Notes: a model not told the origin generated them from the sequence alone. A stretch of DNA of 7,848 nucleotides from a virus (IMGVR_UViG_2778261058_000010:1-7848); one strand, 5' to 3'. Numbered from the stretch's first letter, positions 2,255 to 7,831 are shown. A program made the numbers and translations.

Positions 2255-2737
2255 ATGTCAGGACCCCCGAAAACCCCGCCACGCCTGCATTTGATACGAG
2301 GCAACCCCTCAAAGCGCCCCGTTAAAGACTCCAAAAAAACCGCTAAAAAGGACGAAAAAGGTCTCCCTAAAATTCCGCAGCATTTAGGGGCGCAGGGGAA
2401 GTACTGGTTCAGGCGAATGGCGGAAGAGCTGAATGCGGAAGGGATCATTTCTCAGCTTGATGCGCGTGCACTTGAGTTACTGGTGGAAGCCTACACCGAA
2501 TACCGGCATCACTGCGAAACACTCGATGTTGAGGGGTATACCTACCGCACGGAAACGCAGAATGGCGATGTGATGATCAAGGCACATCCGGCTGCGGCGA
2601 TGAAGGCGGATGCCTGGAAGCGGATCCGGGCGATGCTTGCAGAGTTTGGTATGTCACCGGCAAGCCGGGCGAAAGTAAATATCGCCGGACCGGATGATGT
2701 TGATCCGCTGGCAGAGCTTTTAAAAGCGAGAGACTGA
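2255..2737 (+). CDS. terminase small subunit, P27 family
   Basis: ORF 2255..2737 (160 aa). Basic Pro/Lys-rich N-terminus and overall composition match what I recall of P27-family small terminases. Stop TGA overlaps the terL ATG (cTGATGg at 2735-2739). Confidence 0.8.
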   Translation: MSGPPKTPPRLHLIRGNPSKRPVKDSKKTAKKDEKGLPKIPQHLGAQGKYWFRRMAEELNAEGIISQLDARALELLVEAYTEYRHHCETLDVEGYTYRTETQNGDVMIKAHPAAAMKADAWKRIRAMLAEFGMSPASRAKVNIAGPDDVDPLAELLKARD

Positions 2738-3930
2738 TGGCAAAAGTGGCTGACGGGATCCGCTACGCCGAACGTGTTGTTGCAGGAGAAATTGTCGCTG
2801 GCGAATTTGTCCGTCTGGCCTGCCAGCGTTTTCTTGATGATCTGAAGTACGGCGAAGAGCGGGGGATTTATTTCAGTGAACCCCGTGCGCAGCACATCCT
2901 GAATTTCTACAAATTTGTGCCCCATGTAAAAGGGGCGCTGGCAGGTCAGCCCATTGAACTGATGGACTGGCATGTTTTTATCCTCATTAATATTTTTGGT
3001 TTTGTCATTCCGCTGGTGAATGAAGAGACCGGGGAAGTTGTCATGCGCAGCGATGGCAGCGGACGCCCGGTGATGGTGCGCCGGTTCCGGACAGCGTACA
3101 ACGAAGTCGCCCGTAAAAACGCAAAATCAACCCTGTCATCGGGTATCGGTCTGTATATGACGGGGGCAGATGGTGAAGGCGGGGCTGAGGTGTATTCAGC
3201 CGCAACCACGCGTGACCAGGCCAGAATTGTGTTTGAAGACGCCAAAAATATGGTCAGAAAAGCCCGGTCGACACTCGGGCGATTGTTTGATTTCAACAAG
3301 CTGGCGATTTACCAGGAGCAGAGCGCATCAAAATTTGAACCGCTTTCCTCGGATGCAAACAACCTGGACGGTCTGAACATCCACTGCGCCATTATTGATG
3401 AGCTGCATGCACATAAAACCCGCGACGTGTGGGACGTTCTGGAAACGGCAACCGGTGCCCGTCTGCAGTCCCTGTTATTTGGTATCACCACGGCGGGCTT
3501 TAACAAGGAAGGGATTTGTTACGAGCAACGCGATTACGCCATCAAGGTATTGCGAGGCTATAACAGTGACGTGGAGGGCGCGGTAAAAGACGACTCCTAC
3601 TTTGCGATTATTTACACGCTCGATGAGGGAGATGATCCGTTTGATGAAACGGTCTGGCAGAAAGCGAATCCCGGCCTGGGCATCTGTAAACGCTGGGATG
3701 ATCTGCGTCGTCTGGCGAAAAAAGCGAAGGAGCAGGTTTCAGCACGGGTGAATTTTTTCACGAAGAAAGTAACATCACGCCGTAACAACAGTGCGACCTG
3801 TCCTGATTTTTTTAGTAACCAAATGAAAGAAAAAGATTTTTTCTTGTTCGTCGTTTTTGTTTTTTCTGGAAGGTTCTGGCTGTTTTCATCATTTGTGTAT
3901 TGCACTGTGTATTGCAAAAACGGGTTATAA
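2737..3930 (+). CDS. terminase large subunit (Terminase_1-like), C-terminally truncated, probable pseudogene
   Basis: ORF 2737..3930. Deviant Walker A (ARKNAKST), Walker B (IIDELH) and the W.KANPGLG motif are present. After NFFTKK (codon 344, about 3768) the translation becomes low-complexity and Phe-rich (VTSRRNNSATCPDFF...FLFVVFVF) and the DNA becomes AT-rich. The expected nuclease domain, roughly 200 aa, is missing. Confidence 0.75.
   Translation: MAKVADGIRYAERVVAGEIVAGEFVRLACQRFLDDLKYGEERGIYFSEPRAQHILNFYKFVPHVKGALAGQPIELMDWHVFILINIFGFVIPLVNEETGEVVMRSDGSGRPVMVRRFRTAYNEVARKNAKSTLSSGIGLYMTGADGEGGAEVYSAATTRDQARIVFEDAKNMVRKARSTLGRLFDFNKLAIYQEQSASKFEPLSSDANNLDGLNIHCAIIDELHAHKTRDVWDVLETATGARLQSLLFGITTAGFNKEGICYEQRDYAIKVLRGYNSDVEGAVKDDSYFAIIYTLDEGDDPFDETVWQKANPGLGICKRWDDLRRLAKKAKEQVSARVNFFTKKVTSRRNNSATCPDFFSNQMKEKDFFLFVVFVFSGRFWLFSSFVYCTVYCKNGL
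3894..3916. repeat. tandem 11-bp direct repeat upstream of the integrase
   Basis: tgtgtattgca at 3894-3904 and again at 3906-3916, separated by one base; ends 20 bp before the int ATG. Confidence 0.6.
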
Positions 3931-3935
3931 ATCAC

Positions 3936-5144
3936 ATGGCGCTAAACAAACTGAGCGATAAAAAACTTCGTTCCCTGCTTGGGCGCAGGAGTGAGAGGCA
4001 GGAAACCATCGCTGATGGTAACGGGCTTTCGGTACGGGTCAGTAAATACGGATGTGTTAGTTTTGTTTTCTTTTACAGATTGGCGGGAAGGGGAACCGCG
4101 CCCATCTGGCTGACACTTGGAAAATATCCTGATCTGAGTCTCAAATCAGCGAGAGAGATGCGCGATCAGTGTCGAACCTGGCTTGCGGAGGGCAGAGATC
4201 CACGGATTCAGATAAAAATTGAACGGGAAGCCACCTTGCAACCTGTTACCGTTCGTGAGGCACTTGAATACTGGCTTGATAATTATGCAATGGATAAGCG
4301 TAGGGGAGCAGAACATATCAGGCAGTGCTTTGGTAAACATATTTATCCGGTGATTGGTCATGTACCACTTAGTGATTGCTCTATATCTATGTGGATCAAG
4401 TGTTTTGACAAAATAAAAAAAGTAGCACCTGTACAGGCCGGAGCTTTGTTGCGTATATCAAAACAGGCGCTTAAATTTTGTAGGGTAAGAAAATACGCGA
4501 TTAGTCATGAAATTGATGATCTTGAGGTCTGTGATGTGGGAAAAAAGTCTGCGCGAAGAAGCAGGGTTTTAACAGATGATGAAATCAGAGATTTATGGCG
4601 AAGTATTAATACTGATTATGACAATCACGAATTATCATATGAAAACCGAATTATTTTACGTTTCCTGGTAGTTTTTGGTTGTCGACTGTCAGAAGTATTA
4701 CTGTCGTCCTGGGTAGAGTGGGATTTTGATAAGAAATTATGGCGCGTTCCCGCTGATCATAGCAAAAATGGCAGGGAAATAATCAGACCGATTCCTGATG
4801 GCATGTTTAACTGGTTAGTTACGTTAAAAAAAATAACAGGTAACAAAGAAAATGTGATTGGGTTTGATATGCGTCAGTGTACGGCAAGCGTAACTATCGG
4901 TAAGACATGGAAAAGGATGAAACACTCGGAAAAATGGACGGCGCATGATATGCGAAGAGTGTTTGCCACAAAGCTAAGTGATCATGGTTTTGAACATAAT
5001 GTGGTTGAACAGTTGCTTGGGCACACATTAGGCGGTGTTGCCGGGGTTTATAACAGAAGTCAGTATATGGACAGAAAAAAAGAAGCTATGAACTGGTGGT
5101 ACGACTATCTGAATAAGCTAATTAGTGGTGACGGTAATGATTGA
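3936..5144 (+). CDS. tyrosine site-specific integrase, P4-like
   Basis: ATG at 3936 within ORF 3900..5144. N-terminal arm-binding-like region (MALNKLSDKKL...GNGLSVRVSKYG...LTLGKYPDLSLKSAREMRD) and C-terminal catalytic region (HDMRRVFATKL...LLGH...GVYNRSQY) are typical of P4-type integrases. Confidence 0.9.
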   Translation: MALNKLSDKKLRSLLGRRSERQETIADGNGLSVRVSKYGCVSFVFFYRLAGRGTAPIWLTLGKYPDLSLKSAREMRDQCRTWLAEGRDPRIQIKIEREATLQPVTVREALEYWLDNYAMDKRRGAEHIRQCFGKHIYPVIGHVPLSDCSISMWIKCFDKIKKVAPVQAGALLRISKQALKFCRVRKYAISHEIDDLEVCDVGKKSARRSRVLTDDEIRDLWRSINTDYDNHELSYENRIILRFLVVFGCRLSEVLLSSWVEWDFDKKLWRVPADHSKNGREIIRPIPDGMFNWLVTLKKITGNKENVIGFDMRQCTASVTIGKTWKRMKHSEKWTAHDMRRVFATKLSDHGFEHNVVEQLLGHTLGGVAGVYNRSQYMDRKKEAMNWWYDYLNKLISGDGND

Positions 5145-5358
5145 AATAGTTACGCGTGAAGAACTTGAAAATGATAAAACAATCGACAGGATGATTAAGG
5201 AAGATGAATGTGCATGGTTAACAGCTCTTGGCCGGAGACACAGAGCATTACTTGAAAAGGAAGGAAAATTTCCACGGAAAATATGTATTGGCCCACAAAC
5301 AAAAGTCTGGCGCTTATCTGAGGTGCTGGAATGGGTAAAGGGTGAATGGAAACCCTGA
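5137..5358 (+). CDS. AlpA-family transcriptional regulator (helix-turn-helix)
   Basis: ATG at 5137 overlaps the int stop (ATGATTGA, 5137-5144), implying translational coupling. The 73-aa product carries the AlpA-like pattern (...LTALGRRHRALLEKEGKFP...W.LSEVLEWV). Confidence 0.8.
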   Translation: MIEIVTREELENDKTIDRMIKEDECAWLTALGRRHRALLEKEGKFPRKICIGPQTKVWRLSEVLEWVKGEWKP

Positions 5359-5382: not shown

Positions 5383-5407
5383 ACCCGTCTTTTGGCGGGT
5401 TTTTTTA
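5383..5407 (+). terminator. weak intrinsic terminator-like hairpin between the two AlpA-like genes
   Basis: Short stem acccg / cgggt (5383-5400) followed by T7 at 5401-5407. The stem is only about 5 bp. Confidence 0.3.
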
Positions 5408-5421
5408 TAGGTGATATTTTT

Positions 5422-5700
5422 ATGCAAAAATTTATTTATCCTACACCCGAAGAACGCATTCAGATTCTGAAAGAACATGGCGAACCGTATGATCGCCGTA
5501 TACGCGAACATGAGTGTGCCAATCGTACCGGGCTTTCAAGAAGCAGACGTTGGGTACTTGAACAGGAGGGAGCATTTCCTGCTCGTGCTCATTTAGGGAA
5601 AGTGTCTGTTTCCTGGTTGCTCTCTGATGTGCTCTGGTGGGTTATGCATCCGCCAGGAGTAAAGGAAGTAAACAGCCCATACAAAAACGCCAATAAGTAA
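5422..5700 (+). CDS. AlpA-like helix-turn-helix regulator, second copy
   Basis: ATG at 5422 within ORF 5392..5700; AGGTGA at 5409-5414 with a 7-nt spacer. Contains an AlpA-like core (ECANRTGLSRSRRWVLEQEGAFP...VSVSWLLSDVLWW). Confidence 0.7.
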   Translation: MQKFIYPTPEERIQILKEHGEPYDRRIREHECANRTGLSRSRRWVLEQEGAFPARAHLGKVSVSWLLSDVLWWVMHPPGVKEVNSPYKNANK

Positions 5701-5739: not shown

Positions 5740-5757
5740 TATGTGAGGTAGAAAGTG

Positions 5758-6351
5758 ATGAATAAAAATATTGCCGCGACGGGCAAGGGTGACGCACGTC
5801 ATGTGAAAAAATTCTGTGATATTCGTGATCTGGTCGTTCTGCGCTTTGATAGTGTGAACGTTCGCGTGGTGTATCTGAACGGCGATCCGTGGTTTGTTGG
5901 CGCTGATGTGTGTGCGGCGCTGGAAATTAGCAACGTTACCGATGCTGTTTCAGTTCTGGATAGCGATGAGGTAATGACCCTAGCTTTAACCGAGGGTCAT
6001 TCAGGTAAGCGTGGTGGTGCCAGAAGTTGGAATGTTGTATCAGAATCAGGTTTTTACAAGTTGATCGCCAGAAGTCGCAAAGCTGTTAATCCTGGCACGT
6101 TCGCCCATCGTTTCAGTAATTGGGTATTCAGAAATGTGATACCGGGTATCAGAAAAACGGGGGCTTATGGTATCCCGTGGGGCGCATTACAGGATTTTTC
6201 CCGCCGCAAAGAGCAATACCAGATAAGTGCCAGTGAGAAGGGGAGGGCGCTACAGGCATGTAAGCGCAAAAAGCGTGAACTGGAGGAAGAAGAAAAAAGG
6301 CTGATACGTGAATATCAGCCTGAGTTTTACTTTGGTGAGCGTATTCAGTAA
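5758..6351 (+). CDS. Bro-N domain protein, putative antirepressor
   Basis: ORF 5755..6351 (GTG 5755 / ATG 5758; GAGG at 5745-5748). N-terminal segment VVYLNGDPWFVGADVCAALEISN is Bro-N-like; the C-terminus is basic/acidic and coiled-coil-like. Confidence 0.75.
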   Translation: MNKNIAATGKGDARHVKKFCDIRDLVVLRFDSVNVRVVYLNGDPWFVGADVCAALEISNVTDAVSVLDSDEVMTLALTEGHSGKRGGARSWNVVSESGFYKLIARSRKAVNPGTFAHRFSNWVFRNVIPGIRKTGAYGIPWGALQDFSRRKEQYQISASEKGRALQACKRKKRELEEEEKRLIREYQPEFYFGERIQ

Positions 6352-6509: not shown

Positions 6510-6540
6510 AAAAACAAAAAGCGCCCCGTTGCCGGAGCGC
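6510..6540 (-). terminator. Rho-independent terminator (minus strand)
   Basis: On the minus strand: stem gcgctccg / cggggcgc (one G-U pair) with a GCAA tetraloop (plus 6521-6540), followed by TTTTTGTTTTT (plus 6510-6520). Confidence 0.6.
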
Positions 6541-6634
6541 TCTTGCGAACAATTAACCTACTGCGCAAAAAATGAATCTGTGCGGGGGGATTATATCAAC
6601 CGTGGTCGAAATGACCATAGTTGCAGGATAACAG

Positions 6635-6794: not shown

Positions 6795-6947
6795 TCAACT
6801 TTTTTTCAACTCTATATCGCAAGCACGCCGTAATATATCGCCTTCATTGCTTCCGCAAAGATTCTTTTTCTCGAAGCATGATTTTAAGATAAAGGCGGCG
6901 ACAATTAGAACAATCGCACAGAGTGCACAATTTTTAAGTTTTGGCAT
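6795..6947 (-). CDS. small membrane peptide (50 aa), single transmembrane segment, Cys-rich; not in ORF track
   Basis: Hand-translated from the minus strand: ATG (plus 6945-6947) is 6 nt after AGGAG (plus 6954-6958). Product MPKLKNCALCAIVLIVAAFILKSCFEKKNLCGSNEGDILRRACDIELKKS; stop TGA (plus 6795-6797). Second gene of the minus-strand pair. Confidence 0.4.
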   Translation of the reverse strand: MPKLKNCALCAIVLIVAAFILKSCFEKKNLCGSNEGDILRRACDIELKKS

Positions 6948-7001: not shown

Positions 7002-7181
7002 TTATTCTGATTCTTTGGCCTTGCGGCGCTGGCGGCGTTTGATCTCGCCACGCATGGCTGTAACGATAAACTGCGCGTCTGTTTCGTTTTCCTCTTTGAC
7101 AAAATTCATTTCGCTTAAAACTTCTAGAGGGATTCTAGCCGTTTTTTGTTGTGATTTGTTGTTGGTTGTACCCGTTGGCAT
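7002..7181 (-). CDS. small putative DNA-binding protein (59 aa), possibly ribbon-helix-helix-like
   Basis: Internal ATG of ORF 7002..7349 (plus 7179-7181) is preceded by a perfect AAGGAGG (plus 7189-7195) with a 6-nt spacer. Product MPTGTTNNKSQQKTARIPLEVLSEMNFVKEENETDAQFIVTAMRGEIKRRQRRKAKESE. The strand/helix-like pattern and basic tail suggest a small regulator; fold assignment is inference. Confidence 0.5.
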   Translation of the reverse strand: MPTGTTNNKSQQKTARIPLEVLSEMNFVKEENETDAQFIVTAMRGEIKRRQRRKAKESE

Positions 7182-7247
7182 TACTGGCCTCCTTACTGTT
7201 AGGTGGCGTTCAGTATACGTAGAAAAAAAAATAAAAAAAGGCTTGAA

Positions 7248-7293
7248 GTGCAAGTCACCTAAAAGTAGCATAACCCTCAAAGGTGACTTGCAC
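7248..7293 (+). promoter_or_regulatory. 13-bp perfect inverted repeat with 20-nt loop; candidate operator or structured leader RNA
   Basis: gtgcaagtcacct (7248-7260) is the exact reverse complement of aggtgacttgcac (7281-7293). Preceded by A9-T-A7 (7222-7238) and followed by a second imperfect hairpin (7305-7337). Sits between the divergent minus-strand pair and the Icd-like gene. Confidence 0.4.
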
Positions 7294-7374
7294 CTTAAAG
7301 ACAAAGCCCCGCAAGTGTCGTTACCACTCGCAGGGCTTCTAACCACCAACGATAACGAGAGTATCGAGGTAGCT

Positions 7375-7581
7375 ATGAGAAATCATACCACACACCCGCA
7401 AGGGCGGGACTCGCACAACCTGAATAAATATATCTGGCGTTTTATCGCTCTGAGCACGGCACAACCGCGCGTGATTACCATTGAGGCCACCAGCGAACAG
7501 GAAGCACGCCAGCAATCTCCTGATGGCTGTGTGATGGTATTCGCCGCCCGTATTCGCCAGGGGGTGCACCATGTGCAATAA
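7375..7581 (+). CDS. Icd-like (host cell division inhibitor-like) small protein
   Basis: ATG at 7375 inside the spurious long ORF 6496..7581; GAGG at 7366-7369 with a 5-nt spacer. The 68-aa product (MRNHTTHPQGR...VITIEATSEQEARQQSPDGCVMVFAARIRQ) resembles Icd-like proteins of P4-like elements as I remember them. Confidence 0.5.
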   Translation: MRNHTTHPQGRDSHNLNKYIWRFIALSTAQPRVITIEATSEQEARQQSPDGCVMVFAARIRQGVHHVQ

Positions 7582-7831
7582 CCCACGTCCGGACGCAGCA
7601 GCCGCCGCGCTCACTACGCTGATGCACGCGCTGATTGATATTTCATGCACGGCAGCAAACGTAGAAAAACACATTGCCAGAGAGACGGAATATGCTGGGG
7701 CTTTAGTTCCTCATTCACTGGCTGTTATGCAACTTAGTGCTGATATGGCACTGAATGAGGCCAAAGCCATCCTGATTGCTGATTGTGAAAATGGGGGGGG
7801 GTTATGCGTGATGATCGTTTTAATGCCCTGA
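7571..7831 (+). CDS. hypothetical protein (86 aa); reading frame depends on the G9 tract
   Basis: ATG at 7571 overlaps the Icd-like stop (ATGTGCAATAA). The frame ends shortly after the G9 run at 7793-7801. One extra G would fuse it to the downstream ORF. Confidence 0.3.
   Translation: MCNNPRPDAAAAALTTLMHALIDISCTAANVEKHIARETEYAGALVPHSLAVMQLSADMALNEAKAILIADCENGGGLCVMIVLMP

Follow-up and report, generated by a model that had tools for sequence, protein, structure and literature searches.

How is the first gene of the replication operon controlled in a phage satellite? The DNA analyzed here, a viral stretch of 7,848 nt referred to as the window in its whole length, raises this question through a strongly structured region upstream of an Icd-like gene, which an earlier note had read as the leader of a c4/CI-type antisense RNA. 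We describe the anatomy and conservation of this region, the covariation and strand asymmetry of its stem-loops and its matches to covariance models, and from these we infer transcription starts, protein binding and a regulatory outcome. The arrangement that we consider likely is a promoter flanked by operators, combined with a SymR-like antisense RNA of ~80 nt that would cover the ribosome-binding site of the Icd-like gene.

In the window, the late region of a prophage is joined to a phage satellite. The prophage part holds genes for an M15 endolysin, an HNH endonuclease, TerS and an interrupted TerL, and the satellite part holds a P4-type integrase gene, two AlpA-family genes, a Bro-N gene, a leftward YlcI/YnfO-family gene and the rightward Icd-like gene. 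The satellite is inserted within the TerL gene of the prophage (2737-3930 and 3933-5144); the ATPase domain of TerL is whole, and its nuclease domain ends at profile position 68 of 286 (~nt 3784), directly before the integrase. With int, alpA, a Bro zone, a replication zone, a single orientation and an insertion in a late gene of a prophage, the satellite is a Gram-negative phage-inducible chromosomal island (PICI). Because the island sits inside the terminase gene, it is a "helper-embedded" PICI; such PICIs are described in PMC10111431, and the layout of the window agrees with that paper. The AlpA-family genes lie in tandem and are followed by the Bro-N gene (5125-5358, 5392-5700 and 5755-6351). 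An Rfam scan found no C4 or isrK RNA in the Bro zone of the window, unlike in some PICIs in PMC10111431.

Two genes flank the structured region.

7002-7181, minus strand: ylcI/ynfO-like gene of 59 aa (NCBIfam NF041551, E = 3e-17), with the Shine-Dalgarno sequence AGGAGG at 7189-7194.
7375-7581, plus strand: Icd-like gene (NCBIfam NF033153, E = 1e-19), the first gene of the operon.

The match to NF033153 bears out the Icd-like assignment of the downstream gene in the earlier note; a Pfam search with the Icd-like and YlcI-like proteins of the window matched no family. In complete E. coli genomes, the operon runs through small overlapping ORFs to a DUF4222 gene and then to a primase or RepA helicase gene, and overlapping stop and start codons are found between operon genes in related loci L005-L012. 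Where the second and third operon ORFs meet in the window, there is a run of nine G residues (7793-7801), which could reflect a tract of variable length or a slip in sequencing. The second ORF (7571-7831) extends beyond the ATGCGTGA-type stop/start overlap inferred for L005 from annotated CDS coordinates. The Icd-like reading frame is open in the window from 6496, upstream of the true ATG, and in some genomes the RefSeq CDS of the Icd-like protein is 30-55 codons too long (L006 2998-3369, L007 3080-3364), covering the promoter, the operators and the antisense RNA region described below. On the leftward side, a terminator-like hairpin with a T-run (6514-6568, minus strand), which has a weak Rfam match to a generic sRNA terminator, lies downstream of a unit composed of ylcI and a small ORF (6795-6947) and probably terminates this unit.

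About 190 related loci were gathered from E. coli genomes, GTDB genomes and IMG/VR. The first locus set comprised 63 unique upstream regions, which gave 22 operator classes. A BLAST search of 5,426 complete E. coli genomes found the locus in about 1,600 of them, at up to 6-7 copies in one genome; a GTDB scan with a single Icd-like protein gave 4 loci only, and a BLASTN search with 7190-7600 against 50,697 phage records gave no match.

Each sequence feature named in the earlier note was found in the window, at its position or 1-2 nt from it. The palindrome has 13 perfect pairs (7248-7260 with 7281-7293) around a 20-nt loop (7261-7280) and extends to 18 nt at 89% complementarity. The region 7222-7374 folds at −45.6 kcal/mol, with z = −5.5 against shuffled sequences. 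The palindrome and the second hairpin (hairpin 2) are far beyond chance, since structured forms of both recur in ~100 related loci. The position of the palindrome should be noted, since the elements around it are those of a promoter, as listed below.

7243-7271, plus strand: P_icd promoter, with −35 TTGAAG at 7243-7248, a 17-nt spacer and −10 TAGCAT at 7266-7271.
7248-7258, no strand: operator copy O_R1, GTGCAAGTCAC, the left arm of the palindrome, in the promoter spacer.
7283-7293, no strand: operator copy O_R2, GTGACTTGCAC, the right arm of the palindrome, at ~+4 to +15 of P_icd.
7203-7213, no strand: third, degenerate operator copy O_L, GTGGCGTTCAG, adjoining the conserved CAGTATAC box.
7212-7217, minus strand: putative −10 (TATACT) of a leftward ylcI promoter, a tentative assignment.
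7222-7240, no strand: A-tract separating the two promoters; nearly all related islands are A-rich here, with differing sequence.

Arm 1 of the palindrome lies between the −35 and −10 of this conserved promoter, and therefore upstream of the predicted start and outside the mRNA, a position that speaks against the palindrome as an RNA element. With a consensus-based start at ~7278-7280 (near 7279), both arm 1 and the "loop" would be untranscribed. In all 22 operator classes, a −35-like hexamer is found 17-18 nt upstream of a −10-like hexamer at the P_icd position. The −35 is TTGAC(A/G) or TTGAA(A/G) in 21 of the 22 (TTAATG in L054 is the exception), and the −10 is TAnnnT, again in 21 of 22, with AATAAT in L041. 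Because this frame is kept across the classes, the former loop corresponds to the −10 region and the left arm to the promoter spacer. A simple promoter and terminator scan, which needs 9/12 hexamer matches and an uninterrupted stem, returned no element here; such a scan misses these promoters because P_icd of the window scores 8/12 and the predicted antisense promoter described later is without a −35.

The unit that varies between the classes is an 11-bp GTG-N5-CAC sequence; one copy overlaps the −35 by a single base, its last, and another follows shortly after the −10. In the window, O_R2 is an 11/11 inverted copy of O_R1. The second copy at P_icd is inverted in 8 classes, including that of the window, direct in 4 (L008, L012, L014 and L054) and palindromic in 7, and it is offset from the −10 by either 17 or 4-7 nt. 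No hairpin is conserved, since the copies in related islands may be inverted, direct or palindromic, and the RNA folding energy predicted for the region, −22.7 kcal/mol, weakens to about −11 kcal/mol in islands with direct copies. The repeat is thus kept where an RNA hairpin is impossible, which is the signature of a protein-binding site, and the 13-bp "hairpin" appears in this island only because its two P_icd copies happen to be inverted. The fallback of the earlier note, an operator for divergent promoters, is supported by this class comparison and by the tracking of operators with a protein described below. The palindrome was also considered as a terminator on the minus strand and rejected; the T-run begins 8 nt past the stem, and the inverted repeat is not conserved.

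These observations bear directly on the c4/CI reading, in which the sense leader would be a c4/CI-type RNA whose loop (7268-7278) pairs with a downstream site and blocks translation of the ORF there. The proposed target is as follows.

7797-7807, plus strand: proposed target site of the loop, a chance match outside the system.

The complementarity does exist: 7268-7276 pairs with 7799-7807 over 9 nt exactly, or over 11 nt with one G·U pair, and the complement covers the ATG at 7804. This match, a perfect palindrome that folds well and the Icd-like gene context, as in P1 immI, are what recommends the reading. The match had been graded as suggestive only, and aptly. When only the loop is allowed to pair with the 555 downstream nucleotides, a 9-nt match arises in 1.9% of shuffled loops (p ~ 0.02), and it arises in 17% of shuffles (p = 0.17) when the whole 153-nt region may pair. 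The comparison with homologous islands goes against the pairing: L005 and L088 share the palindrome without the target, with other loop bases and other genes at the downstream junction. In place of the repeated, conserved target sites of the c4 type, there is a single 9-nt match (p 0.02-0.17), absent in the closest relatives. Covariance models for C4 (RF01695) and isrK gave no match on either strand at E ≤ 10 in the window or in 7270-7420, and none at E ≤ 1 in eight relatives; Rfam scans for sar also gave nothing. For related PICIs, PMC10111431 reports C4/isrK matches in the Bro zone rather than at this position. Adding that the loop is the −10 box, that arm 1 is the promoter spacer and that the arms are direct repeats in several islands, we regard the complementarity between the loop and 7797-7807 as chance and the c4/CI interpretation as wrong in every specific; that a c4/CI-type RNA acts here is barely credible.

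The third operator copy lies on the leftward side. O_L of the window matches the other two copies at 7/11, whereas in most other islands the third copy matches at 9-11/11; it always ends CAG|TATAC, next to the start of the leftward gene. The CAGTATAC box is kept across the operator classes, ~24 nt upstream of the ylcI start codon; since no good −35 is present, the leftward promoter is put forward as putative. The A-tract at 7222-7240 is possibly an UP-element or a bend. A LexA box at 7196-7213 was considered and rejected, judged by eye: the CTG...CAG pair there, the only one near the promoters, is spaced 12 nt and not 10.

Which protein may bind these sites is suggested by the leftward gene itself. 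The homologues of the YlcI-like protein have the common pattern N-x-K-S-x4-R-x-P-x-E/D-V...G-E-S...F-I-V-T-A, and most of them have the G-x-S (G-E-S) turn. By hhalign, residues 9-32 align with residues 6-29 of P22 Arc at 46% identity (E = 0.0015, with a probability of only 16%); the aligned part of Arc consists of the DNA-reading β-strand and helix A. Some homologues show weak Pfam matches to antitoxin families of the ribbon-helix-helix type, a PDB sequence search with the YlcI-like profile gave only noise, and AlphaFold with a single YlcI-like sequence gave one long helix, which is uninformative. The variable residues 12-15 correspond to the base-contacting strand of Arc. Each β-strand motif has an operator of its own, and islands with similar motifs have similar operators (Mantel-type permutation p ~ 0.01); L008 and L011 have the same motif and the same operator, yet their Icd proteins are ~33% identical. 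Linkage could explain part of this association, since the gene and the sites are adjacent, and the assignment is rated likely: the YlcI-like protein, which looks Arc-like (ribbon-helix-helix), is likely to bind the GTG-N5-CAC sites. In L024 and L048 (both from IMG/VR), the YlcI-like gene is replaced by a different small protein with an Arc-like N-terminus (…PPFHMRIVPELKEQF…), and the operators are palindromic GTGTACAC. The repressor module appears to be exchangeable between islands.

Another regulator, such as AlpA, a Bro-domain protein or a protein of the helper phage, might occupy these operators in place of the YlcI-like protein. The island does hold two AlpA-family genes and a Bro-N gene, AlpA is the known activator of Gram-negative PICIs (PMC6092414), and the ribbon-helix-helix assignment is weak. 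We nevertheless judge this unlikely, as the operator sequence tracks the β-strand motif of the YlcI-like protein, the third copy on the start region of ylcI suggests autoregulation, and islands that lack YlcI have another small Arc-like gene at the same place together with other operators (L024).

Hairpin 2 lies downstream of the operators, and the claim of a second hairpin was confirmed: in the window it spans 7304-7338 (GC core 7306-7336), with two C×A mismatches on the plus strand. The assignments made here on the minus strand are as follows.

7304-7338, minus strand: hairpin 2, Rho-independent terminator stem-loop of the predicted antisense RNA, as judged from covariation, wobbles and energy.
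7296-7305, minus strand: U-rich tail of the terminator, UUUGUCUUUA; the conserved module begins at ~7297.

Hairpin 2 is kept in nearly every relative. Its 13 pairs include 9 that have changed on both sides, and none of 500 shuffles was as good; in slid controls, only 26-43% of cells pair. The kinds of mismatch in this stem should be noted, since they distinguish the strands. On the plus strand, 59 cells are unpaired, and 42 of these are C×A or A×C, which become G·U on the minus strand. G·U wobbles thus number 42 on the minus strand versus 0 on the plus strand; at least nine columns show the minus-only kind and none shows the opposite kind. This asymmetry points to the minus strand, because transitions should create both kinds equally. 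In a second, independent set, the wobbles number 68 versus 14 on the minus and plus strands, respectively. In the window, the folding energy of hairpin 2 is −25.0 kcal/mol on the minus strand versus −15.6 kcal/mol on the plus strand. The 10-nt tail holds on average 6.1 T on the minus strand versus 2.6 on the plus strand, with the minus strand higher in 32 of 33 variants, and the means in the independent set are 5.6 versus 2.0. The U-tail is found on the minus strand only, and its own sequence differs between islands; many BLAST matches in 1,604 E. coli genomes begin at 7297, the end of the tail. The wobble asymmetry, the folding energy and the minus-only U-rich tail together identify hairpin 2 as the terminator of a minus-strand transcript.

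Since hairpin 2 lies in the predicted 5' UTR of the Icd-like gene and can also form on the plus strand (−15.6 kcal/mol), it might instead work in the sense mRNA, as a 5'-UTR attenuator, a stabilizer or a protein-binding stem-loop, with no dedicated antisense RNA; covariation alone does not separate the strands. Such a role for the plus strand is very unlikely in our judgment. All 42 tolerated wobbles are G·U on the minus strand and C×A mismatches on the plus strand, the minus strand is the more stable one in 33 of 33 variants and in 29 of 31 in the second, more divergent set, the tail on the plus strand is CUAACCACC, which is not U-rich, and the SymR model matches the minus strand, as described later.

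Upstream of this terminator on the minus strand, a complete small RNA is predicted, with the following parts.

7294-7377, minus strand: predicted cis-antisense RNA of ~80 nt (~7376 to ~7297), matched by covariance model R1.
7341-7374, minus strand: 5' domain of the antisense RNA, with an outer helix of 7368-7374 paired with 7341-7347.
7350-7366, minus strand: inner hairpin of the 5' domain, 7350-7354 paired with 7362-7366 around the loop 7355-7361; it is a third, small hairpin, next to the Shine-Dalgarno sequence.
7382-7390, minus strand: predicted antisense promoter, an extended −10 TGgTATGAT inside codons 3-6 of the Icd-like gene, with the −10 at 7382-7387.

No window-type sequence went into model R1, which matches the window at 78.4 bits (E = 4e-26), its sole match there, and gives one minus-strand match in each of 27 related loci searched, except L157. 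The predicted RNA folds at −40.1 kcal/mol (z = −6.8) on the minus strand versus −21.9 kcal/mol (z = −2.7) on the plus strand. In the two-domain fold on the minus strand, 94.5% of cells are paired and 12 pairs have changed on both sides, and again none of 500 shuffles was as good. In the 5' domain, which is complementary to the Shine-Dalgarno sequence of the Icd-like gene (GAGG, 7366-7369), the minus strand has 96.8% of its cells paired, and only this strand forms the G·U pairs. Over a stretch of 70 nt, all positions are invariant except the loop 7355-7361, for which 89 loci show 12 variants. A recognition loop that has to avoid cross-talk would be expected to vary in this way, because a genome may contain up to 6-7 of these islands, and the loop may set the pairing specificity between the antisense RNA of each island and its own mRNA.

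The antisense start is predicted from the consensus at ~7374-7376. Of 62 distinct ORF starts, 61 have a minus-strand TAnnnT hexamer whose end lies 7 or 13 nt into the ORF, and this hexamer is kept in three unrelated classes of N-terminal sequence. The MRNHT/MKDHI class has an extended −10, TGnTAT(G/A/T)AT; TATGCT or TAGACT is found in the MA..QHTQT and MA..QSTQT classes, mostly preceded at a distance of 17 nt by a 4/6 −35 (cTGA(t/a)A); for the MAKQKCTW class, the promoter is TTGATC-16-TACACT. Where H is replaced by Y, N or S in the protein, the antisense −10 hexamer is retained or improved. As the box lies in conserved codons, part of its conservation is coding constraint. A conserved GC-rich hairpin, CCCGC-AAGG-GCGGG (7396-7409), in the coding sequence of the Icd-like gene shortly precedes the predicted antisense promoter on the minus strand.

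The terminator might serve simply to shield the operator and ylcI region from stray antisense transcription, with no regulatory role. Terminator quality is the best-supported fact of the minus strand, and the promoter is only predicted, which is how such an insulator would look. We consider it quite unlikely, however, given a conserved 5' stem-loop domain with minus-only wobbles, a −10 box at a fixed distance in three coding contexts, a hypervariable loop of the recognition type and a resemblance to SymR over the full length. An antisense RNA from the opposite strand probably controls the Icd-like gene. The general idea of antisense control in the earlier note therefore stands as probable, whereas its c4/CI type and its origin in the sense leader do not, since the structured RNA under selection is on the opposite strand.

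The proposed mechanism has two levels, with the region 7190-7390 as the control region of the early/replication operon, from the Icd-like gene to the primase or helicase gene. At the level of transcription, two GTG-N5-CAC copies bracket P_icd and a third overlaps the start of the divergent ylcI/ynfO-like gene; the Arc-like YlcI protein would bind these sites, shut P_icd and regulate its own gene. At the level of translation, the ~80-nt minus-strand RNA would start just inside the Icd-like ORF (~7375) and end at the hairpin 2 terminator and its U-tail (~7297). The predicted RNA is perfectly complementary to the leader, the Shine-Dalgarno sequence and the start codon of the Icd-like gene. As for SymR and symE, it would pair with leaky mRNA, with the hypervariable 7-nt loop as the probable point of first contact, keep ribosomes from binding and probably lead to decay. 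The replication genes downstream could be damped as well, given the overlaps between operon genes.

A wider reading, which is possible but which we hold tentatively, is that Gram-negative PICIs carry an undescribed two-part immunity switch, composed of Arc-like YlcI/YnfO repressors with ~20 operator specificities and a SymR-like cis-antisense RNA, that silences the replication operon, and that SymR/SymE of K-12 is a domesticated offshoot of it. If true, the hypervariable loop would give each island its own pairing specificity. The locus offers two candidates for the quiescence of Gram-negative PICIs, namely a divergently encoded small repressor with island-specific operators and an antisense RNA that would cover the ribosome-binding site of the operon's first gene. 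A proposed function for the widespread YlcI/YnfO (DUF3950) family also follows, as does a predicted RNA family new to Rfam, which would improve annotation, and the locus suggests where SymR came from. Searches of the literature on PICIs or SpLE2 with small or antisense RNAs, on SymR with satellites and for the conserved sequence string found nothing relevant.

Among known systems, the closest likeness is to SymR/SymE of E. coli K-12, in which SymR (Rfam RF01809) is a cis-antisense RNA and a type I antitoxin. In both, an RNA of ~77-80 nt is encoded (here, predicted) on the strand opposite its target, with its promoter a few nucleotides inside the target ORF; in K-12, symR (NC_000913.3 4579835-4579911) starts at +6 of symE, and its −10 TAGAAT lies in codons 5-7. 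SymR and the predicted RNA both cover the start codon, the Shine-Dalgarno sequence and the 5' UTR, share a fold of two domains, a long 5' stem-loop and a terminator with a U-tail, and face a target promoter with repressor sites, which are candidate sites here. The Rfam SymR model matches the minus strand of L013 at 1428-1500 with 32.8 bits, where the icd ATG is at 1501, and that of L011 with 26.3 bits; both matches are full-length (model positions 1-77) and end at the icd ATG, and the primary identity is ~62% for both (z ~ 3.3). Conversely, when R1 is run on the K-12 symE locus with filters off, its best match falls on the annotated symR gene (19 bits, E ~ 3e-6). These reciprocal matches are weak, with the strand and the boundaries as expected. 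The best relatives, L013 and L011, score below the gathering threshold of the SymR model (61 bits), and the RNA of the window itself has no match to this model at E ≤ 10; we therefore regard the window RNA as a probable distant relative of SymR, SymR-like but not a member. The target here is an Icd-like gene heading a satellite replication operon, whereas that of SymR is SymE, and the repressor sites are island-specific GTG-N5-CAC sequences here but LexA boxes at symE. SymR may derive from such a mobile satellite module.

The P22 immI region (Mnt, Arc and sar RNA) has divergent promoters under small ribbon-helix-helix repressors, and its sar is a cis-antisense RNA of ~69 nt against the ribosome-binding site of the downstream gene ant. 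Divergent promoters, a small repressor and an antisense RNA (the latter two being candidates here) are common to both, and the YlcI-like protein aligns to the β-strand and helix A of Arc. However, sar is made within the operon, between arc and ant, and the target gene differs; no sequence relation of the RNA to P22 sar was found, SymR being the only significant match at this site in Rfam.

The c4 and CI RNAs are cut from the sense transcript, and their short loops act on repeated target sites. The likeness lies in the control, predicted here, of an icd-type gene heading an operon in a phage or satellite by an antisense RNA; in contrast to c4 and CI, the predicted RNA here is on the opposite strand, is fully complementary to its target and has no C4 match.

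In CopA/CopB of plasmid R1, a repressor acts on the rep promoter and an antisense RNA acts on the leader of a small ORF; translation of this leader ORF is coupled to that of the replication gene, and recognition starts at loops. The overlapping operon genes down to the primase or helicase gene and the hypervariable loop recall this arrangement, and the comparison is one of layout. By this analogy, a role of the antisense RNA in copy-number control is a speculation. As judged from the sequence comparisons, the system of the window would combine two known kinds of control, that by a SymR-type antisense RNA and that by Arc-type operators.
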